Assembly (NCBI GenBank): GCA_041661275.1
Contig: JBAZUU010000001.1
Location: forward strand, 35,493-99,492
DNA: 64,000 nt
Origin: Parcubacteria group bacterium
Lineage (GTDB): Bacteria > Patescibacteriota > Minisyncoccia > Moranbacterales > UBA2206
Reading direction: 5' to 3'
Positions 11,082 through 61,819 of this stretch are shown one piece after another. Every line of letters begins with the position of its first letter. Within the stretch, counting starts at the first letter, position 1. The translations under genes were made by a program, and so were the position numbers. Under the pieces are notes generated by a model that was not told the origin of the DNA, ran no database searches, and worked only from the letters and a program-made list of their open reading frames with translations.

Positions 11082-11527
11082 TGACTACATTTTCTATAAA
11101 TAAAAGAGCCCATTTCGACTATGAGATCCTGGAAAAATACGAGGCCGGATTGGTATTAGCAGGACACGAAGTGAAATCGATAAAAACGGGACACGTGAGC
11201 TTGAAAGAAAGTTTTGTCACAATACACGGGGAGGAGTTATATCTGACCAATGCCCACATACCGCCATATAAGCACGCCGGAAAAATTGCCGATTATGATC
11301 CGACGCGACCGCGAAAATTACTCCTCAAAAAATCTGAAATCAAGCATTTGATAGGACAAGCGCGCACAAAAGGCTTGACACTCGTGCCAATTCGAATGTA
11401 TACTAAAAGACGACTCTTGAAGCTGGAATTCGGCTTGGGTAAGGGAAAAAAGGAATATGATAAGAGAAATAAGATCAAAAAGAGAGAGGACGAAAAAGGG
11501 ATGAGGAGAATGATGAAAAATTTGTAG
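11081..11527 (+). CDS. smpB: SsrA-binding protein SmpB
   Basis: 148 aa with SmpB-like motifs. Sits immediately upstream of tmRNA. Confidence 0.9.
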   Translation: MTTFSINKRAHFDYEILEKYEAGLVLAGHEVKSIKTGHVSLKESFVTIHGEELYLTNAHIPPYKHAGKIADYDPTRPRKLLLKKSEIKHLIGQARTKGLTLVPIRMYTKRRLLKLEFGLGKGKKEYDKRNKIKKREDEKGMRRMMKNL

Positions 11528-15058: not shown

Positions 15059-15922
15059 CTATCTTTGCAATTTCTTTTTCTCCTGACTTTTCAGAAAATT
15101 TCCGCTAGTAATGACTTTTCTCCCGGTTTTTTGTTCCAAATCGATTCTTGCTTTTTTGGCAATTCTGCCACCTCTTTTGCCAGCAACTTTGTTTTCATCC
15201 ATACCTCTCGCTTCTGTTGTTTCGGCAATTTGTCTGGTAGAAAATTCGGCTAAGGCTGTAAAAATCAATTCCGCTTCACTCATATGATCACGCAGGTTTT
15301 GTGTTTTCAACCCTTTTAGGTTTTTATGCTCTTTTACCGTTAAGTCCGACCACTCTTGATGAATAATATTAGTAAGAATGGCAAATTCTTCTTTTTCTTT
15401 GATATCATTGGCGCTCCAATAGTCCGTCAGCTTGTTTCTTGTTTCTTGCCCCATCATTCTTCGCTGTATCCATTGTTGATTGCGCCCATGTTTTTTCCAA
15501 TTTTCCCGGGCGCGATTGAGCGACTTTTCCGGATCAGCTAATTCTTGAATTCTTTCATATCCAACTTTAGCTAACCACAATTTGATTGGCTCAGCCTTTT
15601 TTGACGGAACTGATTGAATAAGACGGAGGATGGTTTCCGGATTAGCCGCATCCGTAAGATACTTTTTACCATCAGCGGCTTCCAATTTCAGTTGGTTACA
15701 TTCCGTAACCGACTGATTTCCTTCCGTTTTCAAGCGATTTTTCAGCACTTTCCAATAATTTCTAGCTAATTGAAAATCCTTTTGATCAATCAGTACAGCA
15801 ATGATGTCGATTACAGAAAAATACCATACCTCCTCTTTTTCATTATAAAGACGTCGAATTTCAAAATTTTCAAAAATAGCTATTTCGTGGTTTATGTTTT
15901 TTTCCTTTGTTTTCTTTTTCAT
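15059..15922 (-). CDS. Bro-N / DNA-damage-inducible protein D (DinD)-like protein
   Basis: N-terminal Bro-N-like region (FENFEIRRLYNEKEEVWYFSVIDI). Overall resembles DinD/antirepressor family proteins. Confidence 0.6.
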   Translation of the reverse strand: MKKKTKEKNINHEIAIFENFEIRRLYNEKEEVWYFSVIDIIAVLIDQKDFQLARNYWKVLKNRLKTEGNQSVTECNQLKLEAADGKKYLTDAANPETILRLIQSVPSKKAEPIKLWLAKVGYERIQELADPEKSLNRARENWKKHGRNQQWIQRRMMGQETRNKLTDYWSANDIKEKEEFAILTNIIHQEWSDLTVKEHKNLKGLKTQNLRDHMSEAELIFTALAEFSTRQIAETTEARGMDENKVAGKRGGRIAKKARIDLEQKTGRKVITSGNFLKSQEKKKLQR

Positions 15923-15923
15923 T

Positions 15924-16922
15924 TTATTTTTTCATCCCTTTCTTTAACAACTTTTTTACTTCCCGATCAAAATCAGAGATATAATTTTTGTCTTGGTTCA
16001 CGCGATATTTTTCATATTCTTCCAGTGCCTTCTTTTCAGCCTGTTTCGCACTTACCTTGCCGGATGAATGCAATAAATCCTTTTCCGAAATGGTCAAAAA
16101 TTCATCCAGTTTTCTGATCCAATCCTGCATTTTCATCAAACGGCCACTACTGGCTTGCAACTCTGCGAAATCGATATAGAGCGAAACAATGAGATTCAGC
16201 TGATTTATTTCCCGTTCAGTTAGATAGTTTTTTGCGACAACAATGTCATCGGTCGTAATATAATCACTTCTGAAACTCGTGAGTCCCATCAGGGGTTTCT
16301 TACTATCGGCACGCCGGGCGACGATTTCAGCCGCCGTATGTCCATGCACCGCGTAATGCATCTTGTTCTGCACCGTAGCAAAGAATTTTTGTGTCAACTC
16401 GGCATCAATTTTATAGTCGATGCTTGTCGCATAAATATCAGTAACTTTCTGATAAAACCTTCGCTCACTACTCCTGATGTCGCGCACTCGTTGCAATAGT
16501 TCTTGGAAATAGCGTGCTCGACCACCAACTTGTTTGAGTCGTTCGTCGTCCATTGTAAAACCCTTAATCAGATACTCTCTCAGCCTTTCTGTCGCCCATT
16601 TGCGAAATTGCATCCCCCTATCCGATCGTACACAATAGCCAACAGCCAGAATTACATCTAAATCGTAGTGTTTTGCGTTATAACTTTTGCCATCCGCGGC
16701 AGTTATTCGGAAATTCCTAATAACTGAATTTTCGTCCAATTCACCATCTCCAAATATATTTTTCAAATGTTCGTTGACCGTGGGAACGCTCACATCAAAA
16801 AGCTCAGCAATCAGTTTTTGCGTCAACCAAACATTTTCTCCTTCAATTCTAACATGAATTTTTTGCTCATCGCCAAGAGCTTGATAGATGGCAATTTGCG
16901 GTTTTTTATTCTCCTTTTTCAT
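15924..16922 (-). CDS. RhuM-family protein (virulence/anti-defense associated, HTH)
   Basis: VWLTQKLIAELFDVSVPTVNEHLKNIF...VGYCVRSDRGMQFRKWATERLREYLIKGFTMDDERLK matches RhuM family signature blocks. Confidence 0.75.
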   Translation of the reverse strand: MKKENKKPQIAIYQALGDEQKIHVRIEGENVWLTQKLIAELFDVSVPTVNEHLKNIFGDGELDENSVIRNFRITAADGKSYNAKHYDLDVILAVGYCVRSDRGMQFRKWATERLREYLIKGFTMDDERLKQVGGRARYFQELLQRVRDIRSSERRFYQKVTDIYATSIDYKIDAELTQKFFATVQNKMHYAVHGHTAAEIVARRADSKKPLMGLTSFRSDYITTDDIVVAKNYLTEREINQLNLIVSLYIDFAELQASSGRLMKMQDWIRKLDEFLTISEKDLLHSSGKVSAKQAEKKALEEYEKYRVNQDKNYISDFDREVKKLLKKGMKK

Positions 16923-16939
16923 ATTATTCTGCTAACGGT

Positions 16940-18037
16940 TTATAGTGATATAATATCACTATAACCCTCCCTGTCCAGCTCACTGCTGTGGATAACTTTT
17001 ATCTTCCTCGTAATTCCATGCCCGTTGCAGTGTTTCAAAATCCCCGAATACGACTGCAAGCTCTGGCCAAACGATTCTCTGGAAACTAATTTTTCTCGAA
17101 ACATCTTATGTTTCAGTGATAACTTATGGAATATCCGCCTCTTTGTTTTTGTCCTCAAAACTCTATGGTGCGGTAAAACTATATATCCCAGAAAATCAAT
17201 TCCTTGCCTTAGTTTTCTGATAATAATTTTATCAGGATGCAGTTTTAATTTTAATTCCTGTTCGAGAAACTTTCCTATTTCTGGAATTAATTTTTCTAAA
17301 TATTTTTTGTCTTCCAACAAAATAATGAAGTCATCGCAATACCGCAGATAGTATTTTTCTTTTAGCTTATGTTTAATAAACTGATCGAGTTCATTGAGAT
17401 AAATATTGGCAAATATCTGGCTGGTCACGTTGCCCAGCGGCAATCCTGAATCGAAACTTTTGATAATTGTTTCAATAAGCCAAATAGCATTTTTATCGTC
17501 AATCTTCTTTTGAATAAGTTCCAATAATATTTCCTGGTCAATCGAATCAAAAAACCTTTTGATATCGCATTTGAGCGCGTAAATATTTCTATTATTATTT
17601 CGACTGGCTTTCCGACAAAATTGCTCTAATCTTAGAACCGCCCGGTGCGTTCCTTTTTCTACTCGGCAGGAATATGAATCAAAAATGAAAATTTTGTCGA
17701 AAATGGGGTATAATATTCTGAAAATGGCGTGGTGCAGAACGCGATCTCGCACGCAAGCTTTATGAATTCGCCGCAATTTTGGATCGTGCACGTTAAATGC
17801 GGTATAATGGGAATGTTGGTAGGTTTTGTTTTTTAGCTCGCAGTGGAGTTGAAACAAGTTATCTTCCAGACTAAATTCAAGTTCCTGAACGTCTGGCTTA
17901 TTTTTTTTGCCATTTCGAAATTCCTGCCAGGCTAAAAACAAATTTTCCAAGCTAATAATTTTTTCAAATATATTATGACAAATTTCGTCCCCACTAAAGC
18001 CCCCCCCCAAGGAGTTTCCGGTATTAATGTTGTTCAT
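16940..18037 (-). CDS. diversity-generating retroelement (DGR) reverse transcriptase
   Basis: RT domain with the YCDD active site. Motif 4 reads LGNVTSQ, the DGR-specific [I/L/V]GxxxSQ form, in place of QGxxSP. Located 330 bp from a TR/VR pair. Confidence 0.85.
   Translation of the reverse strand: MNNINTGNSLGGGFSGDEICHNIFEKIISLENLFLAWQEFRNGKKNKPDVQELEFSLEDNLFQLHCELKNKTYQHSHYTAFNVHDPKLRRIHKACVRDRVLHHAIFRILYPIFDKIFIFDSYSCRVEKGTHRAVLRLEQFCRKASRNNNRNIYALKCDIKRFFDSIDQEILLELIQKKIDDKNAIWLIETIIKSFDSGLPLGNVTSQIFANIYLNELDQFIKHKLKEKYYLRYCDDFIILLEDKKYLEKLIPEIGKFLEQELKLKLHPDKIIIRKLRQGIDFLGYIVLPHHRVLRTKTKRRIFHKLSLKHKMFREKLVSRESFGQSLQSYSGILKHCNGHGITRKIKVIHSSELDREGYSDIISL
16941..16998 (-). promoter_or_regulatory. 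promoter/operator element A: 23-bp palindrome tatagtgatataatatcactata (extended -10 TGaTATAAT / TGaTATTAT), upstream TGGACA -35, and 13-mer AAGTTATCCACAG
   Basis: Palindrome at 16941-16963. On the minus strand it reads TGGACA-16-TGaTATTAT ahead of the rhuM start 16922. ctgtggataactt at 16986-16998 is the reverse complement of AAGTTATCCACAG. Confidence 0.55.
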
Positions 18038-18373
18038 AAAAATAGCAAGCCTAAATTATTTATTGACCTTGAAAAATTATACGGCGACTGCTATGATCGC
18101 GTAAAAAATTTTCCCAAGCTGGATAAAAATCTCCTTGGAAAAGAAATTTTACAATTTTTGAACGATACGCACAAAGCCTCTTTGATCTCAATCTACGCTC
18201 CTTCTTATCTTCCTTTAGCCAGCGCTAATTTCGATCTGTTCAAAAAATCATTGCGGATTGCCGTGGACAAAAAATTCATTTCCTGCGGCTGGTATTCGGC
18301 TCATTTTGAAATTATCGTTTCCATTGGAAGAGATATCGGAAAATGGCTAAAAACAAAACGCCCGAAGTGCTAG
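17975..18373 (+). CDS. 132-aa ORF antisense to the RT-TR spacer; possible accessory (Avd-like?) protein or spurious
   Basis: An unusually long open frame for an AT-rich genome. Has a weak DCYD match to the Bordetella Avd N-terminus. It overlaps the RT 5' end and sits on the opposite strand. Confidence 0.2.
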   Translation: MTNFVPTKAPPQGVSGINVVHKNSKPKLFIDLEKLYGDCYDRVKNFPKLDKNLLGKEILQFLNDTHKASLISIYAPSYLPLASANFDLFKKSLRIAVDKKFISCGWYSAHFEIIVSIGRDIGKWLKTKRPKC

Positions 18374-18470
18374 GGCGAGGCGCAACCGGTTGACGCTGTT
18401 GGAGTTGTCGGCATCGTTCGAGTTGAGGTTGAACTCGCTGTCGTACGAGTCGGCAATGCCACACGAGACA
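18373..18470 (-). repeat. DGR template repeat (TR)
   Basis: 98 bp aligning with 18825-18922 at offset 452. Carries A (coding strand) at all 14 mismatch positions. The coding-strand 3' 32 bp are invariant (IMH-like). Confidence 0.8.
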
Positions 18471-18693
18471 AAATAGCGCTGTTCCGTCCTTTTTTCAAAA
18501 AGAAAAAATTTATTTCTTTTTATATCCTGTTTTTCAGGACTCCGTTTGGACGCTAACATAAATTCATTTTTCTCCGTCCCTGGAACCGCGCTGAACTTCG
18601 GGTTTTTGTATGAGGAGGATTCCGCGTACGGAAATCCTGCTGGACTCAAGGTTATTCTATCATCATTTTTCTGAAATTGAAATACTTATTGCG

Positions 18694-18728
18694 ATAAAAA
18701 AACCCCCGCAATGTTTCCATTGCGGGGT
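18694..18728 (-). terminator. rho-independent terminator downstream of DGR target gene
   Basis: ccccgcaatg-tttc-cattgcgggg is a perfect 10-bp stem. It is followed by a T-run on the minus strand (A-run 18694-18702 on plus). Confidence 0.5.
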
Positions 18729-18819
18729 TGAAATCAATCCGGAATCCAGAATCCATTTTCCGCTTCGCGGAAAAATCCTTTCCATCCCGAAGCGGGACGG
18801 AAAATCTGAACCCGAAATT

Positions 18820-19845
18820 CTATAGGGCGAGGCGCAACCGGTTGACGCTGTTGGAGCTGCCGGCACCGCACGAGCCGAGGCCGAACCCGCCGCCGCACGA
18901 GCCGGCAATGCCACACGAGACACCGGGATTCGTACCTTTGTCGCGATGGTCAACGACATTTCTCAGCCAATCCCACGTTTTGGGAGCCAGATATGTTTTG
19001 TTCTTCGCGTAACGCTGGCATGCCAGAATCATTTCTTCTTCCGCTGAAACTACTCTTACTTTCCGCTCGATCGCCGAAATGTATGAGCAATCGCGAAGTT
19101 CGACGATCCGGCCATCCTTGTTGACGATGGTCTGATTGGTGGAGATGTCCTGGGCGCTGTTGGTAAAAATGAGATCCACCATACCAGGAATGACCAAAAG
19201 TGGTCGCTTCCCGATAATCAGCCGAATTATTTCCGCCACCCACGCATTTTTGAAGTCGTCACTATTAAATTCCTCCGGCTCGACAGATATACCTCTTTCA
19301 AGAAGTTCTGCGAGCGTGAGTTTCGTCCACCGGTCAGTGCCGTTCTCCGCCCAGACCCTGAAGCCTTCTTTTTTGAGCGGTTTCATAATCCGCTCGTAGA
19401 AAAACCGGGCGCCAGTCATCTGCGCTTCCGTATCGGACAAGATTAGCGGCGTAGCTTTGACTTCGGCGTAGCTGAGACAGCCCGCTTCTAGCCCGGCTTT
19501 GATGGCCGGCATCCTGTTCGGGTCAATGGAGATTTTCTTGAAATCGATACGGAAATCATCGCCGTAAAACTGGCGATAAAAAACTTCCTGCTCGGCGATC
19601 TGGCCCATCAATCCGCCTGACAGTTTCGACTCCAGCTTATTCTTCTTGAGCCAGAGCAAAAACTTTTTGAGGTTGAGGTTTTTTCTGACAGGGATGATGC
19701 CGGAATTTCTTTCTCGTTCTTCTTTTTTCAAATTGAGAAACCATTCCAGCTCCTCCAAAGACAACTCTCCTTTACGAAGCTTGGAGAGCAGGTCGATTTG
19801 CAGACCAGCCAATCTGGCCGTTTCTGCTCCGATGATCACACTCAT
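18820..19845 (-). CDS. DGR target (variable) protein, 341 aa, VR-encoded C-terminus GSCGGGFGLGSCGAGSS
   Basis: In-frame through the VR. The TR reading in the same frame has AAC/GAC codons where the VR has GGC/TGC/AGC. No obvious signal peptide. Confidence 0.7.
   Translation of the reverse strand: MSVIIGAETARLAGLQIDLLSKLRKGELSLEELEWFLNLKKEERERNSGIIPVRKNLNLKKFLLWLKKNKLESKLSGGLMGQIAEQEVFYRQFYGDDFRIDFKKISIDPNRMPAIKAGLEAGCLSYAEVKATPLILSDTEAQMTGARFFYERIMKPLKKEGFRVWAENGTDRWTKLTLAELLERGISVEPEEFNSDDFKNAWVAEIIRLIIGKRPLLVIPGMVDLIFTNSAQDISTNQTIVNKDGRIVELRDCSYISAIERKVRVVSAEEEMILACQRYAKNKTYLAPKTWDWLRNVVDHRDKGTNPGVSCGIAGSCGGGFGLGSCGAGSSNSVNRLRLAL
18825..18922 (-). repeat. DGR variable repeat (VR) at 3' end of target gene
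   Basis: Differs from TR at 14 sites, all at TR coding-strand adenines (13 A>G, 1 A>T). Encodes the Gly/Cys-rich C-terminus. Confidence 0.8.
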
Positions 19846-20129
19846 CGTTTTCTCCCTTCCTATAACTATAAATTTAAAAAGGTACTTCTTTTTCTCTCAA
19901 TTACCGGCCAATCCGGCAATTCAAGAAAGCATAGCACAAAAGCCGCCCGGAGTCAAACCTGGAGTCAAATTTGGGGCGGTAAAATGGCGTTTTTTGGCTT
20001 GAATAAGCAATAAAATTAGCTATTGCAATAAAATTGGTTCTATGCTAGTATTAATTTACAGAAAGTTCCCGGCCCAGGGTCTACAAGCACCCTACAATGG
20101 CGGGGAATTTTTTTGTGTTTATTTTTTAC

Positions 20130-20546
20130 TTATGACGGAGGAAAGCAAGACATAAAAAATTTGCGTTTGGTTTTAGAATCTTCTTTTATTTGCACAAAAA
20201 AGAGCAATCCTTCTTCGGTTAGCCCTGCAAATCTATAGAAAGTTTCTTTGGGTTTATTGGGATTATTTTTTATAAACGGTTTATTTCTTGAATTTTTAAC
20301 GAGTTCTACCGACGCGCAAAAATACTTAAGCCTCTCTAATCTGTCTTTGTACGGCTTTTGCCGCAAATGATCCCAAAAGTAGTCAAAAAATATTTTTTCT
20401 TTTTTGAAATAAGCACTACGGACATATGGCCTTCTTTTACTTTTTCTTTTTACTTCTGAAAATATATTTAAAGCGTTTCTATATACTTCCGTACGGCTGG
20501 TTCCAGGAACCTTTCTTGATTTTGTCTGATATGGAATAACCTCCAT
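20130..20546 (-). CDS. hypothetical basic protein (about 138 aa) downstream of the DGR target
   Basis: Start chosen at the internal ATG 20546 (MEVIPYQ...), directly behind promoter element B. Lys/Arg-rich. Confidence 0.45.
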   Translation of the reverse strand: MEVIPYQTKSRKVPGTSRTEVYRNALNIFSEVKRKSKRRPYVRSAYFKKEKIFFDYFWDHLRQKPYKDRLERLKYFCASVELVKNSRNKPFIKNNPNKPKETFYRFAGLTEEGLLFFVQIKEDSKTKRKFFMSCFPPS

Positions 20547-20566
20547 TGAATTATTTTTGTTTTTAT

Positions 20567-20625
20567 TATAGTGATATAATATCACTATAAATAATCCTTG
20601 TCCACCCCTACTCCACAATTATCAT
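20567..20625 (-). promoter_or_regulatory. promoter/operator element B: palindrome identical to A (23/23), with TGGACA-17-TGaTATTAT on the minus strand
   Basis: tatagtgatataatatcactata at 20567-20589. TGGACA lies 17 nt upstream on the minus strand. A degenerate box follows (ctccacaattatc). Confidence 0.55.
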
Positions 20626-26062: not shown

Positions 26063-26788
26063 TTATTTCGCCATCGCCTTGGCTTTCAAATTTTTTGGCA
26101 TTTTCTCGATGGCATAGCGAAGGGCTGTCCGCGGCATTTTCTTTTTGTTCTTCATGACATAGTCAAAAACTTCCTTTTCGTGCGCCTGGCTCGCCACTTT
26201 CAACATCCATCCGTAACCTTTTTGTACCATATCATCCGGATCTAGCAATAGTATATCAGAAATTTGAAAAATATCTGGCAAAAATTTTCCACGCTTTCCA
26301 GGAACGATGAGGGAGACGGCCGAGGCGCGGCGCATCCAACGATTTTTTGACTGCGCCCATTTTTTCAGACTTTTTACATACTCCGGATATCGAACCAAAA
26401 ATTCGCCGACCGTATGGTTGCAAAAAGTATCACACGCCGCCCAATTGCTGACATAAATTTCTATCCAGCTTTCAAACACTTTAAAATCTTTCGGCTCGTA
26501 ATATTTTCTGACATAATATGACCAGTTACAAGCGATGAAAGCTTCTTCCATATAGCCGGACTTCCACAACTCTTCGCACAAGCCAAAAATTTCTTTTTTA
26601 TTCTGACTTTTAATTTCCTTGAAATTTTCTCTCCCGATCATACTGACGGTTGCCGTCTTCACACCATAAAGCTTGATCTTTTCTTTGAAAAACCTTTCGC
26701 CGCTTTTCCTCACTTTCTCATCGGCATTCTTTTTCAGCTCGCGCCGTATTTTTTGGACAATTTCACTCATTTGTCTATTAAACTTCAA
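26063..26788 (-). CDS. DNA alkylation repair enzyme (AlkC/AlkD-like HEAT-repeat glycosylase family)
   Basis: 241 aa. Conserved W/Y-rich helical repeats (WSYYVRKYY, VSNWAACDTFC, WMRRASAVSL) resemble the PF08713 family. Confidence 0.7.
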   Translation of the reverse strand: MKFNRQMSEIVQKIRRELKKNADEKVRKSGERFFKEKIKLYGVKTATVSMIGRENFKEIKSQNKKEIFGLCEELWKSGYMEEAFIACNWSYYVRKYYEPKDFKVFESWIEIYVSNWAACDTFCNHTVGEFLVRYPEYVKSLKKWAQSKNRWMRRASAVSLIVPGKRGKFLPDIFQISDILLLDPDDMVQKGYGWMLKVASQAHEKEVFDYVMKNKKKMPRTALRYAIEKMPKNLKAKAMAK

Positions 26789-27446
26789 AAGTCATTCTCT
26801 TATACACCTCCCGCGTGCATTCTACATCCCGCTTACAATATTCGCAGATATCTTTCGTTTTTCCGGCTTTATAGAAAGAATATACCTGTGAACCGTCAAT
26901 TCCGTCTTTGGGTGTCGGAATCCCCAAGGCCAGGGCGACATGTTCGAGACCAATATTGCTGTTGGCCCATTTGACCCATTCTTTCATCGTATCGTATATC
27001 GGATAGTTTCTATAACGGGTGAAAGGAAGTTCATAGGCCGGCTTGACTTTATTGATAATAGAACGCTGGTAGATGAACCGCAGATCAAAATCCATGACAT
27101 TGTGCCCGATGAACTGTACGCCATAATCCGGCTGATAAGAATTATGGTTTGGAGAAACACTAATAGACTCAACAATGTCCCAGAATTTTTCGATCATCCT
27201 GGCTTCATCAACGCTCCCGTCCAAAACTTCCACTGGCTCATCATCGATAGCATAAGCGATGCAAAGAATCCGTCCGAACGACCCATCAAAAGAAGTTCCT
27301 AAAAGATACTGCTCAAAATCAGTATGGTCGTCACAATTTTCTTTCTTATTCTTCTTGGCTTTTTTTTTCTCAAACAAAAATTTCAGCGCCTCGTGCTGCT
27401 CATCTCCCGCCGGCAAAGTCTCGATGTCCAGGTACAATCTTCGCAT
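26778..27446 (-). CDS. DEDD-type 3'-5' exonuclease (PolB-exo-like, PF10108-like)
   Basis: Exo I YLDIETLP, Exo II GHNVMDFDLRFI, Exo III YCKRDVECTREVY. Confidence 0.7.
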   Translation of the reverse strand: MRRLYLDIETLPAGDEQHEALKFLFEKKKAKKNKKENCDDHTDFEQYLLGTSFDGSFGRILCIAYAIDDEPVEVLDGSVDEARMIEKFWDIVESISVSPNHNSYQPDYGVQFIGHNVMDFDLRFIYQRSIINKVKPAYELPFTRYRNYPIYDTMKEWVKWANSNIGLEHVALALGIPTPKDGIDGSQVYSFYKAGKTKDICEYCKRDVECTREVYKRMTFEV

Positions 27447-27559
27447 AATTTTTTGTTACAATAGTTAATCTGTTTCAATTATATCAGTCCCTAAAAACAA
27501 AAACCAGCCCACGAGGACTGGAAAACTCGCCAGTTTTTTTAATTTCTGTAATATCTAAT

Positions 27560-27787
27560 CTATAAATGACTTTCCGCTTCAGCGAAGGCCTTGGAAAAAT
27601 CAGCAAAATGATCTTTGAACAACATTATCCGATTAGTTACCCTTTCTCCGTCTTTTTTCTTATACAGTTCAGCGATTGTCAGATAGTGACTGCCGTTAGA
27701 CGCTTTTTTGACATCGAAGAAATAATTTTTGCCTCCCGCTCGAACCATCTGGGAGTGCACTTTCTCCGGCATGTTTTGTCCCTCCAT
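27560..27787 (-). CDS. PUR-alpha-like ssDNA/RNA-binding protein (DUF3276 family)
   Basis: MVRAGGKNYFFDVKKASNGSHYLTIAE...MLFKDHFADFSKAF matches the DUF3276 pattern. Confidence 0.6.
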   Translation of the reverse strand: MEGQNMPEKVHSQMVRAGGKNYFFDVKKASNGSHYLTIAELYKKKDGERVTNRIMLFKDHFADFSKAFAEAESHL

Positions 27788-27907
27788 AATTTTTTGGTAC
27801 GCGTCTTTTAAATTTTTCCATTAGTCTTATGTTAGCTGCAGCTAGATAAAACTTTTGGCGTGACGCATACATATTAAGTATTAGCGCGAGGGTCTTTTTC
27901 CACTCGC

Positions 27908-27963
27908 AGTGATATTCTATCACTGATGATATACCACTGCAAGTACTACCCTGTGGATAACTT
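27908..27963 (-). promoter_or_regulatory. promoter/operator element C: palindrome agtgata-ttc-tatcact with extended -10 (TGaTAGAAT), -35 TTGCAG, box AAGTTATCCACAG
   Basis: Minus strand reads AAGTTATCCACAG-8 nt-TTGCAG-17-TGaTAGAAT, upstream of the gene at 27787. Confidence 0.55.
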
Positions 27964-30662: not shown

Positions 30663-31433
30663 TCAAATCGTCAATTTATACCTCCCTTTTCCAATAAATT
30701 CCAAGTATCCGTTGTCCCTCAAGACTTGCAATTGCTGACGAAGTTTATCCTTTATAAAGTTATTTTGGGGATGATTCTTTTTCAGCTCTTTTTCAAAAAA
30801 ATACACCTCATCGAGAGAAAACTCTTTTTTGCCAAGTTTATCGATACAATTCATTGTATCTAAAATCCACCCCTTGGCTGATATTTCTTTCTCATCTCTT
30901 ATAAATAATGTTTTTCGCCAATTTTCCAAAACATTTTTCTTCGTCTCCGCTTTCCTATCTTTGACATAAAATATTTTTCCCGTCTGTGGTATACCAACAA
31001 GTGAAATATTGCACCCTATCCATCCAGCTCGTCTGGCATTTTCCGAAAGTGGTCTTCTTTTTTCAATAATGTCCGGAATAAAAAAATGTTTAGGAATAAC
31101 CAAAAAATTTAGAATCTCGAGATTTTTCAAATCATAATTAAGCAAAAAGAAGTTTGGATTATTGCTACACTGCAATCTTTCAATCATCGTCCGATAAGCA
31201 CCATCAACAATTTTCGTTCCGATTGAATTCTTTTTACTTTTTAGTTCATACTCTTCGGCACAACTCGGACAAAAAAAATCAGCAACTGGCCGATTATTTT
31301 CATAGCTGCTAACATTAGTTCCGCAATTCGGACAATAAATTTCGTTATCAACCCAGCTTTCAGTTAAAACTCTAATTTTTTGCGAGTTACTATTATAGTT
31401 TTCAGCAATTTTAACATCTAGAGCTATTTGCAT
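30663..31433 (-). CDS. DpnI-like methylation-dependent (Type IIM) restriction endonuclease
   Basis: Long collinear similarity to DpnI as I recall it: YNSNSQKIRVLTESWV..YCPNCG..ENNRPVADFFCPSC.EEYELKSKK..DGAYRTM..NNPNFFLL..ARRAGWIGCNI..LNCIDK..IKDKLRQQLQVLRD. Confidence 0.7.
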   Translation of the reverse strand: MQIALDVKIAENYNSNSQKIRVLTESWVDNEIYCPNCGTNVSSYENNRPVADFFCPSCAEEYELKSKKNSIGTKIVDGAYRTMIERLQCSNNPNFFLLNYDLKNLEILNFLVIPKHFFIPDIIEKRRPLSENARRAGWIGCNISLVGIPQTGKIFYVKDRKAETKKNVLENWRKTLFIRDEKEISAKGWILDTMNCIDKLGKKEFSLDEVYFFEKELKKNHPQNNFIKDKLRQQLQVLRDNGYLEFIGKGRYKLTI

Positions 31434-31546: not shown

Positions 31547-31603
31547 AGTGATATGGCAACACTACTACAATATCACTGCAATACGCTCGCCTGTGGATAA
31601 CTT
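31547..31603 (-). promoter_or_regulatory. promoter/operator element D: agtgatat-N15-atatcact inverted repeat plus box AAGTTATCCACAG upstream of the DpnI-like gene
   Basis: ctgtggataactt at 31591-31603. Inverted repeat arms at 31547-31554 and 31570-31577. Confidence 0.5.
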
Positions 31604-43514: not shown

Positions 43515-43570
43515 AAAGCATTTATCCACAGTTTCCGATATTTGCCGGTTGACAGAAATCGGCTGCTCTG
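43515..43570 (+). promoter_or_regulatory. TTATCCACAG box plus consensus promoter TTGACA-17-TATACT
   Basis: Box at 43515-43524, -35 at 43542-43547, -10 at 43565-43570. Confidence 0.5.
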
Positions 43571-43589: not shown

Positions 43590-43655
43590 TAAGATTATGA
43601 AAACAGCGAAACAAACATTCAAGCTAGTCTTTGGGATGTTGATTACCGTCATTGG
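43590..43655 (+). CDS. 21-aa hydrophobic peptide MKTAKQTFKLVFGMLITVIGR (type I toxin-like / membrane micropeptide candidate)
   Basis: GGAG sits 10 nt upstream of the ATG. A consensus promoter lies 20 nt upstream. A terminator hairpin follows at 43706-43732. Confidence 0.4.
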
Positions 43656-44774
43656 ACGATAAATTTTCGCTGGGAACATAGCATAAAAAAAATAGACAAA
43701 CGGATCCCGGCGAAAAGCGGGGTTTTTATTTTTCAAAGTTCCTTACAACACAAATTCTATTAGCCGGAGAGTGCGTAAAATTTAATTGTGCATTGTCCGG
43801 CAAACGGAATGATTTCCTTGAAAGAAAGATTCTTGAAAACTAATTTGCTTGAATTTTTGCCGACTCACTCGTTTAAATATGGCAGTGATGAATCAGGCTC
43901 TCCTAAAAGGAGAAAAAATAATTTTCAACAAACCGGTTTTCAATAAATTAATCAATCAAGGAAATCTTCTAGATGCCAATCTGCAAGAGGGGTAAGTCAT
44001 CCTACAACCGAAACGGATAGGGGGGAACATGAATCAGCCAAAGAAAGTGACCGAGAAAAGCTTGACCGGAAATAAAGGAAATCTCCTGAAATTTCCCGTT
44101 CCGATAGATGAACGGGAACCTGTCAAGCCACCGAGCTCTCATGAAATCAAGAGGGCTTTCTCTGAACTTTTTATGGCAAAAGCCGTCCAGACGACTTAAC
44201 TCAGTCCCATAAACTCCAAAAGAGTATGGGCATATCAACACAAGGGAGAGGTGCAATCCGCTTCTCCCTTCTCTCAAAAAATTTATTACTTTTTATATAA
44301 CCACCACACAAAAATGAATTTTATATTTCTCACAAATAGCATAATTATGATTATTAACCGACCAGCGTCGAGTTGATTTTGGTTTCCGAAAACTAATTAG
44401 GATCAACCCGACGCCAGTCGGTTTTTTTATTGATTAATAACAACATTATCCTCCTCTCCCTTCGGGAGAGGATGTCAGCCTAAATTTTTCTTAAAATTTT
44501 GGCTGACAGGAGAGGGAAAAGGAGATCTATCATGAAAAAACCGGAAGAAGAACAATGCAAGCTGTCAACTGAAAGCCAAAAGAGAATGCGAAGAATCGCT
44601 CAAAAAGAAGGCAAAAAAAGTGCGTGCGAACTTTGCATCCACAGGGAGAAATGTAAAAAATAAACCCCTAACTTTTTCCTAACATGGAATGAGTTGCAAG
44701 CCGAAAAGTAAAACATACTTTTTGGCACCAGCCGAGCTTACCCCCTTACAGCCCGGCCTTTTTATTGCACCTTA

Positions 44775-44803
44775 TTGACAAGATAAACTACATCTGCTAA
44801 ATT
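44775..44803 (+). promoter_or_regulatory. promoter TTGACA-17-TAAATT
   Basis: Read directly from the sequence. Confidence 0.4.
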
Positions 44804-44815
44804 AAGGGTACTGTT

Positions 44816-44890
44816 ATGAATCAAATTATAAACAACCTACTACTTCTATTGCTTAGCCCGCACGCGGTGGTTGTTTCGTTTCGTTCATAA
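44816..44890 (+). CDS. 24-aa hydrophobic peptide MNQIINNLLLLLLSPHAVVVSFRS (second micropeptide module)
   Basis: The promoter is directly upstream. A terminator (ccgcc-gtgtg-ggcgg plus T7) follows at 44918-44940. Confidence 0.35.
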   Translation: MNQIINNLLLLLLSPHAVVVSFRS

Positions 44891-45297
44891 GCAGTAGTTA
44901 AAACGAAGAAAAACATTCCGCCGTGTGGGCGGTTTTTTTATTTGCGGCTCCCTACATTATTCCCTTCTCCCTTTTAGGGAGAAGGTGGCTCGAGTCCCGC
45001 AATAGCGGACGAGAGACGGATGAGGGAAAACCATGGAATAGTGAGTTTATAAATTAAATTTTAATTTTTAAACTGGCTGTTTCAGAGGGTTCTTTCAACA
45101 ACTAACAGGAGAAAGAGTTATGATTTTTCTTAACGACATACCTCAAATAATCGAAGATTACGAAGCGGTAAGAAAGATTTACCGCAAAAGAGCAAAAAAA
45201 GAGCGGCTTCATCGATTTATCGTAAGATGCCGCATGTTTATTACTCGTTTTCCTTGGATTCACATTTAATTTCAAAGGTCAAAGAAAGGAAGGTACT

Positions 45298-50355: not shown

Positions 50356-50484
50356 TTTGCATCTCCTTTTTCTTGTCGACTTTATTGCCCATTCGACAAG
50401 ATAAGCCAGGGCGGGCTAATTAAATTAGAAAAAAACAGGCCTCTTCTACTAACGTCGCCAGTCGATGCTGACTTGCTATATTAG

Positions 50485-50545
50485 CACAAAACCAGCCCTG
50501 GGTCAATGGCTGGCTGATTTTAAGAATATTTTGCTTTATATAAGC
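50485..50545. repeat. 61-nt intergenic repeat copy E1 (terminator-like hairpin ccagcc..ggctgg plus conserved tail)
   Basis: About 85% identical to 52740-52800, in the same orientation. Confidence 0.6.
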
Positions 50546-50560
50546 TGTTTTACTAACGGA

Positions 50561-52665: not shown

Positions 52666-52739
52666 GATTATAGCTCCCGTGTATGAGTCTGTATAAAAGA
52701 ACGCGATTCTGTCAAATAAATGTTGACATACTATACTAT

Positions 52740-52800
52740 CACAAAACCAGCCCTAGGTCAATGGCTGGTTAGTTTTGGTAGTATTTTGCCCTATATAAGC
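52740..52800. repeat. 61-nt intergenic repeat copy E2
   Basis: See E1. Confidence 0.6.
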
Positions 52801-52804
52801 CTAT

Positions 52805-53575
52805 TTATGGATGGAACTCCATTGCCCATTTATCCTTTCCTTTCCAACTGTCAAAAACTTTGCCAAATCCCTCTTTTATCGCTAATTCTTCAACCATTTT
52901 TAGGAGTTCTTGCTGGGTTTCCAAATCGGCATTCTTCAATACTTTGGAAATTTTGTCTAACAGTTCTTTATTGCTTATTGGCAACTTTTCCAGCGGAGCA
53001 ACTTCTAGTTCTTTTGGCAGGTAGCCGTAAAATGGAGCCAGCCTTTTGTGCAAAGCAAAGAGAGTAATAATCAGATTAGGAATGGAGCTGGCAGATTCAA
53101 TGTGAGCACCCAAAAGATTACCGCTCCGAATACACTTCACTGACCGAAAAACACCGTTCAGATAGTCGTCTATTCTTTCTCCTGTAAATTTCTTCCACTC
53201 GTCTTCAGGTATGGTTCCTTTGGAATCAATCAAATTTTGAATTTCACCCGTTTTATCAATTATCGCCTTAACTCTCGCGAAATCATATCTATCCCAAGCA
53301 AAATCCGTTCCCCATTCGGCATACTCTCTAAATTCAGACAATGATTGAACTGATAAATCAATATCGGGATTGTCGATATTGGAATACTTGGTTTTATATT
53401 CCTCGGCGACTTCATCTTTTACAATTATTTTTATATCATAGTCGGACTTCCCGTTTTCAAATCCTTTTCCCCGCGAACCCTTGAGAAAAAGCCCGATGAT
53501 ATTGTCGTCATTTTTTGCTTCTTCTAAAATTTGATTGTATAAATTTTCCTTTTCCATAAGTTTTATTTTACGCAA
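52805..53575 (-). CDS. nucleotidyltransferase resembling aminoglycoside 6-adenylyltransferase (ANT(6)/AadK-like)
   Basis: LFLKGSRGKGFENGKSDYDIKIIVKD parallels the AadK N-terminal NTase block. Length 256 aa. Confidence 0.55.
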   Translation of the reverse strand: MRKIKLMEKENLYNQILEEAKNDDNIIGLFLKGSRGKGFENGKSDYDIKIIVKDEVAEEYKTKYSNIDNPDIDLSVQSLSEFREYAEWGTDFAWDRYDFARVKAIIDKTGEIQNLIDSKGTIPEDEWKKFTGERIDDYLNGVFRSVKCIRSGNLLGAHIESASSIPNLIITLFALHKRLAPFYGYLPKELEVAPLEKLPISNKELLDKISKVLKNADLETQQELLKMVEELAIKEGFGKVFDSWKGKDKWAMEFHP

Positions 53576-58384: not shown

Positions 58385-60208
58385 CTACTTTTGCACAATA
58401 TTCTCCAGCCTTTCTTTTCCCATTATATGCAACTCCGATATAGCGCGAGTAAGCGCCACATAAAGAAGATCTTTGTTAATTCTCTTTTTCTCTTCAGCTA
58501 AATCAACATGCCCCTTATCTTGATAATCAGCAAACATTTCTTTGCTGACGCCCACAATAATAACAACGTCAAACTCCACTCCCTGCGCTTCATTCATCGT
58601 CATTGCATGCACTTTGTTGTTATCGCTAAAAGTACTTTTGAACTGAGTCAAATAATTCTCTTCTTTGGCTAATATTCCGACACTGGAAAAATTATTTGTC
58701 GCAATGATTTTTTTGATTTGTTCGATTTCTTCATCCTTGCTTTGAAAAATATATTCTTCCACCGCTTTTCCTTCCTTTAGCTGATCGAGTATTTCAATGT
58801 CATATCCCAATTTTTTGATATATCGCAAAATGTTTTTTGTGTTCCGATAAACTTTTTGCAGCGTTACCTTTCGTTCCTCTTCCATTTTTTCCTCGATATC
58901 TTCCCAATGGCGGATCGTTCCCAGCTTCACTTGCTGAGCCATATCTCCGACATAAACCGTTGATTGGCTTTTCTCGCTGATACAAGATTTTATAAGCCGC
59001 AATTGATCCGGCAAATAGTTTTGGAATTCGTCGATTACCGCTAAGGAATATTCCAAGGGTACCGCTTCCTTCTTCTTTTTTATGGATCCGTTCCTTTGCT
59101 GGATATATCGATCTCTAATCACACTTAAACCCTCGCTGCTCGCGTAAGATATTTTCAGAAGTAAGGTTAAGTCAATTCTGTCATACGCCCTCTCTTCCTT
59201 TTGACGCTGAAACAAAGTTTTTTTCTCGTTGTTCAAATACTTTCCATAAACTTTTTCAAGTATTGAGTGCGAATCTGATTTTGCATATGTCTGCTTGGAT
59301 AAATTATTCAAAGCTTTCAATTTGTAAAACTCATATAAGTCCTTCTCGTACTCACTATCTCCGTATCTTTCCGTAAAATTACCATCCATGCCAAGAATCT
59401 CAAACGCCCATTCGGAAAAAGTAACGATTTTGACATCATCGATACCGAGCTCCGGCAGAAGATGGGAGAAATACTCCTTGGTGCCGTTATCCTGAACGAA
59501 GACTATGATGGATTTGCTGGTGTAGATGTCGGCCAAGTCCGGAGATTGAACAAGATAGGCCACCCGATGAAGAGCCAGGGTGGTCTTGCCGCTTCCAGCC
59601 GGACCGGAGATCAAAAACGATCCTTTATGATAAGCGCGAATTACCTGATCCTGCGCCTTTTCCATTTGAGCCACAATTTCTGGAAGAATGAAGCCTGTTT
59701 TTTTGGTGGAAAAATATTCTTCATATATCAGTTCCCGCGGCTCGGATATCGTTTCCGAAGACAGAAATTTTATTTTTCTATCAACAATCATAAATTGATC
59801 TTTCCTGAGCAGTTTTACTTTCTGTATCATTCCGTCCGGACGCTTATAGCTCACGTCGCCCGGCTTTTCAAACCGAATCACTGAAGCCGGAGTTATCCAG
59901 GAATAAATATCCCTGTCGCTGAATCCAAACTTGCCAAAGTAGATTCTGTTTTCTTTTTCTTCCCCGCTAAACACAATATCGCAGCGCACAAAATAGGGCG
60001 AGCCTTTTAAATGCTTCAGCTCATTGATTCTTTTTTCATTGTTGGCGATGATCGTACTCTCTACCATCTGGTCGGCGTAGGAAAGCGTGCTGAACCTCTC
60101 CTTGCTTAATTTGAGTGACTTCTCCACTTTAGCAAGACCATTTTTCAGGCTCATACAAACAGACGCCAAATGTTCCCTGGCGAGGGATAGAATTTTTTCT
60201 TTGTCCAT
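58385..60208 (-). CDS. UvrD/Rep-family SF1 DNA helicase (HelD-like)
   Basis: Walker A GPAGSGKTTLALHRVAYL, VYVGDMAQQV, ALTRAISEL. Confidence 0.7.
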   Translation of the reverse strand: MDKEKILSLAREHLASVCMSLKNGLAKVEKSLKLSKERFSTLSYADQMVESTIIANNEKRINELKHLKGSPYFVRCDIVFSGEEKENRIYFGKFGFSDRDIYSWITPASVIRFEKPGDVSYKRPDGMIQKVKLLRKDQFMIVDRKIKFLSSETISEPRELIYEEYFSTKKTGFILPEIVAQMEKAQDQVIRAYHKGSFLISGPAGSGKTTLALHRVAYLVQSPDLADIYTSKSIIVFVQDNGTKEYFSHLLPELGIDDVKIVTFSEWAFEILGMDGNFTERYGDSEYEKDLYEFYKLKALNNLSKQTYAKSDSHSILEKVYGKYLNNEKKTLFQRQKEERAYDRIDLTLLLKISYASSEGLSVIRDRYIQQRNGSIKKKKEAVPLEYSLAVIDEFQNYLPDQLRLIKSCISEKSQSTVYVGDMAQQVKLGTIRHWEDIEEKMEEERKVTLQKVYRNTKNILRYIKKLGYDIEILDQLKEGKAVEEYIFQSKDEEIEQIKKIIATNNFSSVGILAKEENYLTQFKSTFSDNNKVHAMTMNEAQGVEFDVVIIVGVSKEMFADYQDKGHVDLAEEKKRINKDLLYVALTRAISELHIMGKERLENIVQK

Positions 60209-60509: not shown

Positions 60510-61127
60510 ATGAACAAAATACCAACAAAAGGTGAATATTTAGAGGTCTTATTAAGATCTCCCAAAACCGTCTTTTCTACAAAAGATGCGGCTTTATTAT
60601 GGAACGAGACCGATAATGCCGTGGTTACTGACCGATTAAAAAAATATGTTAAAGCTGGAAAGTTAGTTCGACCATATCGCGGTTTGTATGCCAAAGATAA
60701 AAATTATAATCGCTTTGAAATTGCAACGCGAATCTATACTCCTTCTTACATCAGTTTCGAAACTGTTTTGACGAGAGCTGGAATCAACTTTCAATTCTAT
60801 AGCAATATTTTTGTGGCTTCATACGTAACTCGAGATATTCAAGCTGGCGATCAGTCGATTTCATTTGTCCGAATGAAAGACTATGTTTTAAGTAACACGG
60901 TCGGCATTGAACATTCGGACGGAATTGCCATGGCTACCAAAGAGCGCGCGTTCTTGGACAGAATTTATGTGAGCAAAGATTATCATTTTGATAATTTAAA
61001 CGCCTTGGATTGGGACAAGGTGTTTGAGATTTTGCCGATCTATAACAATAAGCGAATGGAAAAGAAGGTTGATGAGTATTTCGATCACTACAAAAGCGAT
61101 CAACCAATTAAACCAGAAAAAATATGA
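60510..61127 (+). CDS. AbiEi-like antitoxin/transcriptional regulator (type IV TA, abortive infection)
   Basis: N-terminal wHTH-like region. 4-nt overlap with the downstream AbiEii gene. Confidence 0.6.
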   Translation: MNKIPTKGEYLEVLLRSPKTVFSTKDAALLWNETDNAVVTDRLKKYVKAGKLVRPYRGLYAKDKNYNRFEIATRIYTPSYISFETVLTRAGINFQFYSNIFVASYVTRDIQAGDQSISFVRMKDYVLSNTVGIEHSDGIAMATKERAFLDRIYVSKDYHFDNLNALDWDKVFEILPIYNNKRMEKKVDEYFDHYKSDQPIKPEKI

Positions 61128-61819
61128 AATTAGATTATTCAAAACACAAAAATATCTTACTGCAGATTTTAAAGGACATTTATTCCGATACGTCTATTGC
61201 TCCCCATTTAGGATTTAAGGGTGGAACGGCCGCTTTATTGTTCTATGGATTAACTCGTGATTCGGTTGATTTGGATTTGGACTTGCTGAACGAAGAAAAA
61301 GAAATAGAAGTATTTGAAAAAATACAAAAAATTATCGCCAATTATGGGACGGTCGTCGATTCGAGAATTAAGAAATTCAATTTGCTTAACGTTCTTTCGT
61401 ATGCGCCCGGTGCGCAAAAAATAAAAGTCGAGGTCAACCGAAGACAGTTTGGCTCGAAATATGATCTTAAAACTTTGCTTGGCATATCAATGCTGGTCAT
61501 GATTGAGGAAGATATGTTTGCCCATAAGCTGATGGCCATGCATGAACGGATCGGCAAAACAAGTCGGGATGTTTATGATGTTTGGTTTTTCTTGGAAAAC
61601 CGCTGGCCCATTAACAAAGAAATTGTCGAACAACGTTCCGGTAAAACTTTCAAAAAAGTGCTGAAAATGACGGCTGAACAGTTGGAAAAGCTGGATAATA
61701 AACACGTATTGGATGGACTGGGTGATTTCCTGACAGATCCACAAAAAGATTGGGCTCGCGCCAAACTGAAAAGTGAAACGATATTTTTACTAAAAGCTCG
61801 AGCGGAGAGTGAAAAATAA
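61124..61819 (+). CDS. AbiEii/AbiGii-family nucleotidyltransferase toxin (DUF1814)
   Basis: LGFKGGTAALLFYGLTRDSVDLDLDL is the family signature. Confidence 0.75.
   Translation: MKLDYSKHKNILLQILKDIYSDTSIAPHLGFKGGTAALLFYGLTRDSVDLDLDLLNEEKEIEVFEKIQKIIANYGTVVDSRIKKFNLLNVLSYAPGAQKIKVEVNRRQFGSKYDLKTLLGISMLVMIEEDMFAHKLMAMHERIGKTSRDVYDVWFFLENRWPINKEIVEQRSGKTFKKVLKMTAEQLEKLDNKHVLDGLGDFLTDPQKDWARAKLKSETIFLLKARAESEK

Follow-up and report, generated by a model that had tools for sequence, protein, structure and literature searches.

Two identical palindromes flanking a diversity-generating retroelement in a Moranbacteria-like genome are probable members of a promoter/operator family

Several described systems come close to the element reported here. 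LexA binds the SOS boxes of E. coli (TACTGTATATATATACAGTA), palindromic sites some 20 bp long whose centre is AT-rich and which lie over core promoters and recur, nearly identical from gene to gene, at many unlinked genes; one SOS gene, dinD, encodes a BRO-N domain. Restriction-modification and defence genes carry dyad operators in their promoters, at which C-proteins (at the C-box) and BrxR/CapW-type regulators repress as dimeric helix-turn-helix proteins, each on one adjacent operon and each encoded beside its operator. Extended -10 promoters of the sigma-70 type consist of TG-n-TATAAT or TG-n-TATTAT with a -35 hexamer at 16-18 nucleotides (nt), and the 9-mer TTATCCACA is the DnaA-box consensus. 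Diversity-generating retroelements (DGRs), finally, have cis elements of their own, the initiation of mutagenic homing (IMH) sequence and a hairpin 3' of the variable repeat (VR). All of these were compared with two identical palindromes, copies A and B, in a 64,000-nt stretch of DNA (the window) from a Parcubacteria group bacterium (contig JBAZUU010000001.1, positions 35,493 to 99,492), where they stand on either side of a DGR. The original prediction took A and B for sites at which the DGR cassette had been mobilised or assembled by recombination, with promoter duplication as its fallback. It is likely, as judged from sequence comparisons, that the palindromes are instances of a promoter/operator module conserved across Moranbacteria-like Patescibacteria, and that their bracketing of the DGR is coincidental.

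The module is similar to LexA boxes in size, centre, position and spread, and DinD-like BRO-N genes are its commonest cargo, but its sequence (GTGA-N7-TCAC) differs from the E. coli box, the LexA motif used for the comparison. The 24 genes downstream of the module include none of the SOS core classes (no recA, lexA, uvrA or translesion polymerase), a partial comparison in that lexA and recA themselves were not located, and no site was found at the uvrD-like gene of the window (58385-60208). C-box and BrxR/CapW-type control acts on a single operon, whereas the module occupies several unlinked loci per genome and has no linked regulator gene. To the extended -10 promoter it adds an exact mirrored right arm and a TTATCCACAG box; this box holds the exact DnaA-box consensus, but it stands singly near the -35 of many promoters and not in an origin cluster. 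The DGR cis elements share the locus with the palindromes, which are however 1.9 and 1.6 kb from the VR, AT-rich and found elsewhere without a DGR. A resemblance to the consensus sequences of Fur, CRP, NrdR and lambda operators was considered and rejected, as spacing or arm orientation did not fit. Searches of the literature for the motif sequence and for promoter palindromes of the candidate phyla radiation (CPR) gave nothing relevant; the literature searched holds no description of the element itself, and its kind, an operator overlapping a promoter, is familiar.

Promoter-like anatomy and recurrence of the palindrome

The 23-mer TATAGTGATATAATATCACTATA was found by exact match search (0 mismatches) at 16941-16963 and 20567-20589, in agreement with the original prediction; the window holds no further copy at three or fewer mismatches, and none of 100 dinucleotide shuffles yielded a match. 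The sequence is an 11+1+11 palindrome whose opposite strand is identical save for the central base, and by this base A and B have the same (direct) orientation. Their identity spans 25 nt, that is, the 23-mer and one base on either side. Across the window, Rfam at its gathering thresholds gave one tmRNA and one tRNA and no match to the palindromes. The features of the two sites and of the genes behind them are as follows:

16941-16963, minus strand: palindrome A, putative operator with embedded extended -10, predicted promoter of the RhuM/BRO-N genes

16950-16955, minus strand: hexamer of the extended -10 of A (TG-n-TATTAT), at the palindrome centre

16972-16977, minus strand: -35 of promoter A, TGGACA, 16 nt from the -10

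16986-16998, minus strand: upstream box of A, AAGTTATCCACAG, which holds the DnaA-box consensus

15924-16922, minus strand: RhuM-family gene (PADLOC PDC-S05), first gene behind promoter A

15059-15922, minus strand: BRO-N domain gene (PADLOC PDC-S13), which follows the RhuM-family gene in the promoter-A unit and is the last of the variable block described below

20567-20589, minus strand: palindrome B, putative operator with extended -10 (hexamer 20576-20581), predicted promoter of the 138-aa gene

20599-20604, minus strand: -35 of promoter B, TGGACA, 17 nt from the -10

20130-20546, minus strand: 138-aa gene of a Patescibacteria-wide family

The layout at both sites, TGGACA-16/17-TG-n-TATTAT upstream of a gene, is that of a sigma-70 extended -10 promoter. 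Both scored 10/12 in a promoter scan, among the best sigma-70-type sites in 14-24 kb, and on the minus strand the ATG of the RhuM-family gene follows copy A after 18 nt and that of the 138-aa gene follows copy B after 20 nt. The assignment of A and B as sigma-70-type promoters of their downstream genes, from which transcription would start, appears to be essentially right. The fallback of the original prediction is borne out to this extent; the two are not plain duplicates of each other, as no homology was found beyond the -35 and the 25-nt block. In its full form the module, read on the minus strand, has first an upstream box AAGTTATCCACAG, which may be lacking; next a hexamer of the -35 type, in the window TGGACA; 16-18 nt on, an extended -10, TG-n-TATAAT or TG-n-TATTAT, at the exact centre of the dyad TAGTGATAT-W-ATATCACTA; and last a short, A-rich leader that spans the 20 nt or so up to the start codon. 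Copy A would then serve as promoter of the RhuM/BRO-N pair that comes after the DGR reverse transcriptase (RT) gene, and copy B would do the same for the 138-aa gene ahead of the DGR target gene.

The box of A falls inside the tail of the RT open reading frame (ORF), in the codons K-V-I-H-S. Upstream of copy B there is no TTATCCACAG box, because this position is coding sequence of the VanZ-C39 gene: the -35 of promoter B begins 3 nt past the VanZ-C39 stop codon (20608-20610). The sequence GATAATTGTGGAG in this region was considered as an inverted box and rejected, being conserved C-terminal coding sequence of VanZ-C39. The 138-aa gene had no match in Pfam, PADLOC and PHROG searches. Between it and the target-gene promoter lies a hairpin (20057-20105) with a T run on the plus strand only (GTTCCCGGCC...GGCGGGGAATTTTTTT), which looks like a plus-strand or bidirectional terminator.

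Recurrence was assessed by scanning the 19-nt core TAGTGATATWATATCACTA against 185,579 species genomes, one genome per species. The scan gave 45 loci, about 33 of them in assemblies of Moranbacteria, Parcubacteria or Patescibacteria (some mislabelled or unclassified), with up to four per genome. About 12 are single matches in unrelated AT-rich taxa, by our own estimate close to the number expected at random when 18 bases are specified and 596 Gb are scanned. The one match among viral contigs (L005; L numbers denote loci outside the window) is without the usual promoter layout. Outside the window, 23 sites share the order box, -35-like hexamer (TTGACA, TTGCAA, TGGACA or TAGACA), palindrome and ATG; the hexamer is followed by 16-18 nt that include TG, TATAAT stands at the dyad centre, CACTATAA comes next, and in most sites the ATG is found 19-23 nt past the palindrome. 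Among the 24 sites whose orientation is given by the box, 22 have the perfect TATAAT on the strand that reads towards the gene. Most Patescibacteria matches that have no consensus box have a -35 hexamer and/or a start codon about 20 nt downstream. Because spacer sequences and lengths vary among the sites, it is motifs, and not a copied segment, that are conserved.

Downstream genes were classed by Pfam and PADLOC scans:

DNA methylases: 4 sites, Pfam only

DpnI: 1 site, PADLOC mREase_II

KilA-N: 1 site, PDC-S22

ORF6N: 2 sites, PDC-S05

BRO-N/DinD-like: 7 sites, PDC-S13 (PADLOC on 3)

RhuM and RhuM-Fic: 3 sites, PDC-S05/PDC-S23 (PADLOC on 2)

NYN: 1 site, PADLOC NYN, weak match

GIY-YIG: 1 site, Pfam only

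SDH-type protease: 2 sites, no PADLOC match

DUF3276: 1 site, no PADLOC match

unknowns: 3 sites, no PADLOC match (one of the three scanned)

By these assignments restriction-modification and candidate defence genes make up the bulk of the set, most of the genes matching a PADLOC defence family, and A and B are, as far as such comparisons tell, members of a lineage-wide family of putative promoter/operator sites associated with defence-type genes. In L012 two ORF6N genes stand in tandem, each with a near-identical full promoter module (2013-2070 and 2663-2720); one copy has a single right-arm change, CACCA for CACTA.

Two diverged members of the family and further boxes were located:

27907-27925, minus strand: site C, CAGTGATAGAATATCACTG in minus-strand reading, with its box at 27951-27963, upstream of the DUF3276 gene (27560-27787)

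31547-31577, minus strand: site D, half-sites AGTGATAT and ATATCACT with 15 nt between them, with its box at 31591-31603, upstream of the DpnI gene (30663-31433)

43522-43530, plus strand: palindrome-less TTATCCACA(G) box in the window

L055 13335; L079 3791 and 4257; L087 3513; L097 3500 and 5408; L114 4795: palindrome-less TTATCCACA(G) boxes elsewhere

The exact 13-mer AAGTTATCCACAG precedes A, C and D, 12-26 nt upstream of the dyad, and between the TTATCCACAG box and the -35 there are 7-12 nt. A total of 323 kb of loci picked without regard to the palindrome has 11 copies of TTATCCACA, where about 2.5 would be expected, and most of these copies again lie 7-12 nt upstream of a TTGACA-type -35, including those of the tuf promoter in L055 and of window 43522. 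The box looks like a general promoter-proximal element of the lineage, separate from the dyad. The box-type promoter at 43522 is followed, within 43598-43735 on the plus strand, only by a 21-codon ORF (MKTAKQTFKLVFGMLITVIGR) and then by a terminator-like hairpin (43703-43735); the next 1.4 kb (43750-45100) have no gene call, short ORFs of up to 91 aa and no credible Rfam match. Just downstream of site C, in the DUF3276 leader, a GCGAG...CTCGC hairpin was observed (27880-27905, minus strand) that is also present in L051 (675-700), with a different loop sequence.

Symmetry of the dyad and a putative regulator

The left arm of the dyad (the AGTG -16 region and TG-n-TATAAT) is accounted for by RNA polymerase; the mirrored right arm is not. 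The full dyad is kept at orthologues, namely those of the DinD-like BRO-N gene in four genomes, the SDH-type protease in two and RhuM in three, and it stands upstream of several unlinked genes per genome, as an operator would. At site C both outermost positions are changed, C...G for T...A, with the dyad symmetry retained, and the same two-sided change is found at the L051 orthologue, where the site is conserved. Extra half-sites, TTGCAGTGATAT and TTGACAGTGATAT, are fused to the -35 or lie near it in site D, L051, L009 and L024, a degenerate one (TTGCAGTGGTAT) is found at site C, and L047 has overlapping dyads. Taken together, the conservation at orthologues, the two-sided change at site C, the extra half-sites and the overlapping dyads suggest that a symmetric protein binds here. 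Since the two arms mirror each other perfectly and span the -10, the mechanism would most likely be occlusion of RNA polymerase at the dyad by a dimeric DNA-binding protein, probably a repressor. Scattered genes of the defence/mobilome type would then be placed under one switch.

Several observations weigh against a regulated promoter/operator family as the explanation. No regulator gene linked to the sites was identified. Half of the dyad (TGATATAAT) is in itself a strong extended -10, and RNA polymerase explains part of the conservation. The exact 19-mer used for sampling under-samples the true variability of the motif. Copy B appears to be species-specific, because none of 58 regions upstream of homologues of the 138-aa gene has the palindrome; sites can evidently arise abruptly, which simple selection of binding sites does not explain. 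A and B also have two uncommon features in common, the TGGACA -35 and a central T in gene direction (TATTAT). Contigs L002 and L003, of the same species, have this T at the corresponding site; among the other oriented sites the centre is A in 22 and T in L010 only. Of the 24 box-oriented sites, two have a T centre. This hints that A and B are not independent and are perhaps related via conversion or copying, and since the rare T is common to both, copying or conversion among members within the window genome is plausible. Owing to the same T, the perfect TGATATAAT of A and B faces the plus strand.

These points lend some weight to a copied promoter without a regulator, in which a strong 25-nt promoter core was copied within the genome and its symmetry is without function. 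A TGATATAAT-type -10 with no right arm occurs, for example, at about 27480-27490, upstream of the gene at 26778-27446, and in two pairs of sites, each from one genome (L007/L042 and L008/L019), the homology runs 30-48 nt further upstream and takes in a hairpin, which suggests that a promoter unit of about 100 bp can be transplanted whole. The shared TGGACA and T centre and the lack of copy B at all 58 homologues can be read in the same way. We nevertheless regard this explanation as unlikely. The right arm, for which RNA polymerase has no need, is exact in about 33 sites and in orthologous promoters, site C has kept its symmetry through a two-sided change, additional half-sites stand at the -35, and A and B have nothing in common beyond the hexamer and the 25-nt block. 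Outside these parts the flanks of the two are no more alike than background, by which a segmental duplication was rejected.

A further alternative is a miniature mobile palindrome: an element like repetitive extragenic palindromes (REPs) or miniature inverted-repeat transposable elements (MITEs), with an outward promoter, that inserts upstream of genes. Exact copies upstream of unrelated genes, the abrupt appearance of copy B and the longer flanks with hairpin that some within-genome copies share are what such an element might produce. The fixed distance and orientation to start codons, however, favour selection on function; a target-site duplication is lacking, the flank on the left being variable and the conserved TAA confined to the gene side, no associated transposase was found, and 23 bp is far below known MITE size. 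We hold it to be very unlikely.

The DGR between the copies and the variable spot

As the original prediction had it, A and B are about 3.6 kb apart and enclose an RT, a template repeat (TR), a target gene and one small gene, all of which were located; a bAvd-like gene in the interval was absent from its list. The features are as follows:

16940-18037, minus strand: DGR RT (RVT_1, 7.5e-23; gene callers start at 17950)

17975-18373, plus strand: bAvd-like gene, on the strand opposite to RT and target

18371-18470, minus strand: DGR TR

18820-19845, minus strand: DGR target gene, with the VR at 18823-18922, the 3' end of the gene

19928-19956, minus strand: the target gene's own promoter, TTGACT-17-TG-n-TATGCT

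15059-20607, minus strand: variable block of 5.5 kb (138-aa gene, DGR, RhuM and BRO-N), absent from L051

45676-47319: large serine recombinase of 527 aa (Resolvase, Recombinase and Zn_ribbon_recom domains)

The interval is a genuine DGR, because each of the 14 differences between TR and VR falls on a coding-strand A of the TR. An RT and an Avd accessory gene lie next to the TR; thousands of close homologues of the RT are called RT, and the bAvd-like gene has a weak Pfam match (E 1.9e-4, below the Pfam cut-off) and a PHROG match to "Avd protein of DGR" (6.7e-7). Two GC-rich hairpins directly 3' of the VR (18778-18804, with a 12-bp stem and a TTC loop, and 18704-18727, minus strand) are candidates for the DGR hairpin/cruciform element and the target-gene terminator. 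Four DGR loci of this family were compared (window, L055, P0125 context and P0124 context): in each of them the gene just upstream of the RT runs on the other strand, and it is Avd in the three that could be annotated, i.e. the window, L055 (7579-7956) and the P0125 context.

The last seven RT codons lie in palindrome A, as originally predicted, the minus-strand reading being Y-S-D-I-I-S-L; A also supplies the first two bases of the TAA stop, and the ORF ends at 16940. RTs with 68-79% identity to that of the window can be aligned with it as far as ...KHCxGxxIxKxI and end 8-12 residues before it does. Homology ceases at the start of the AAGTTATCCACAG box. For the last 19 codons (KVIHSSELDREGYSDIISL) there is no homology in related RTs; the DNA of this stretch, AAAGTTATCCACAG...TGGACA...palindrome-TAA, is promoter module A, exactly from the box to the end of the dyad. 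By this alignment the tail is a read-through into the adjoining promoter up to a stop, and nothing suggests a functional role for it.

That A and B are recombination sites, at which the 3.6-kb cassette is excised or inverted, or was once assembled, through a recombinase or homologous recombination, was suggested by their 25-nt identity and direct orientation, to which may be added the rare centre base common to both and their position at a variable spot. The original prediction looked to related genomes for an empty site with a single palindrome, and held that the same genes without the flanking repeats would speak against it. The closest relative, L051 (VanZ-C39 77% identical, gene order kept on both sides), has VanZ-C39, 73 nt and then the 57-aa, SpoU and HAD genes. 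The block 15059-20607 is missing, and no palindrome is present at the junction. The missing block does not end at A; its ends are the VanZ and BRO-N stop codons, and it reaches 1.9 kb beyond palindrome A. In L053 (72% identical), about 140 nt that resemble window 19846-19990 directly follow VanZ-C39. This stretch (11185-11317) is the highly conserved target-gene promoter and leader, TTGACT-17-TATGCT and then TTCTTGAATTGCCGGATTGGCCGGTAATTGA; it precedes a different small gene, shortly after which the contig ends. Since L053 has neither the 138-aa gene nor the palindrome at this spot, promoter B with the 138-aa gene would be a separate insertion. Yet another gene is found at the spot in L054. 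With four different contents in the window, L051, L053 and L054, the spot downstream of VanZ-C39 is, on these comparisons, a variable hotspot.

The link between palindrome and DGR is missing in other genomes as well. DGRs with RTs 76-79% identical sit before groEL, rpsL or fpg, and in L055, the one related DGR whose DNA could be examined, the 8 kb to each side are free of the palindrome. Conversely, no RT, Avd or target homologue was found in the 45 palindrome loci or in 70 loci around homologues of the 138-aa gene. A general tie of the 138-aa family to the palindrome or to DGRs was rejected on the 58 upstream regions and these 70 loci. Elsewhere the palindrome lies upstream of single genes and brackets nothing. 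The predicted junction of an A/B deletion (40 nt, exact) was not found in JGI metagenome contigs. The nearest recombinase is the large serine recombinase beside tRNA-Asn, 25 kb off. Recombination between A and B is contradicted by L051, L053, the related DGRs and the 45 loci, and we consider it highly improbable. More consistent with the lineage-wide promoter/operator family is successive insertion of several units between the VanZ-C39 gene and the SpoU operon; the DGR would then lie between A and B because these units were inserted one after another at a variable spot.

On the far side of the serine recombinase lie AbiEii (61124-61819) and a UvrD-like helicase gene; this region is possibly an integrated element and unrelated to the palindromes. 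An 88-nt direct repeat, 80% identical (50465-50552 and 52720-52807), was observed among paralogous Peptidase_S51 genes.

The idea that the palindromes act as RNA hairpins, i.e. as 3' terminators or stabilisers of upstream transcripts, can draw on the RT ending inside A, on VanZ-C39 ending 18 nt before B and on an 11-bp stem with a 3-nt loop (predicted about -10 kcal/mol, z about -4), but it is hardly credible, as the stem is AU-rich with no U tract and unlike an intrinsic terminator, the terminator scan was silent, a separate GC-rich terminator precedes the box in L008, L019 and L021, the predicted transcript start lies near the dyad end, and the feature that is constant across genomes is the downstream start codon and not the end of an upstream gene.

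Implications for regulation in the lineage

Measured against the earlier proposal the outcome is deflationary: A and B are very unlikely to be the ends of a mobile DGR cassette, and identical palindrome pairs in these genomes should not be read as the ends of mobile elements. What is gained is a sharply defined cis-element that marks genes of the defence and mobilome type in a CPR lineage about whose transcriptional regulation, to our knowledge, little is known. It provides a handle for promoter annotation in these genomes, lets co-regulated defence genes be predicted and gives a route to the regulator by phylogenetic profiling or DNA-affinity methods. We would advance a wider proposal only tentatively, namely that one near-invariant dyad of 19-23 bp around the -10, usually with a DnaA-box-like element, puts diverse defence genes under a single predicted regulator across Moranbacteria-like Patescibacteria, and that a unit of about 60-100 bp moves to new genes, as may have happened at the 138-aa gene. 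If true, this would amount to a genome-wide "defence regulon" in an uncultured lineage with reduced genomes.

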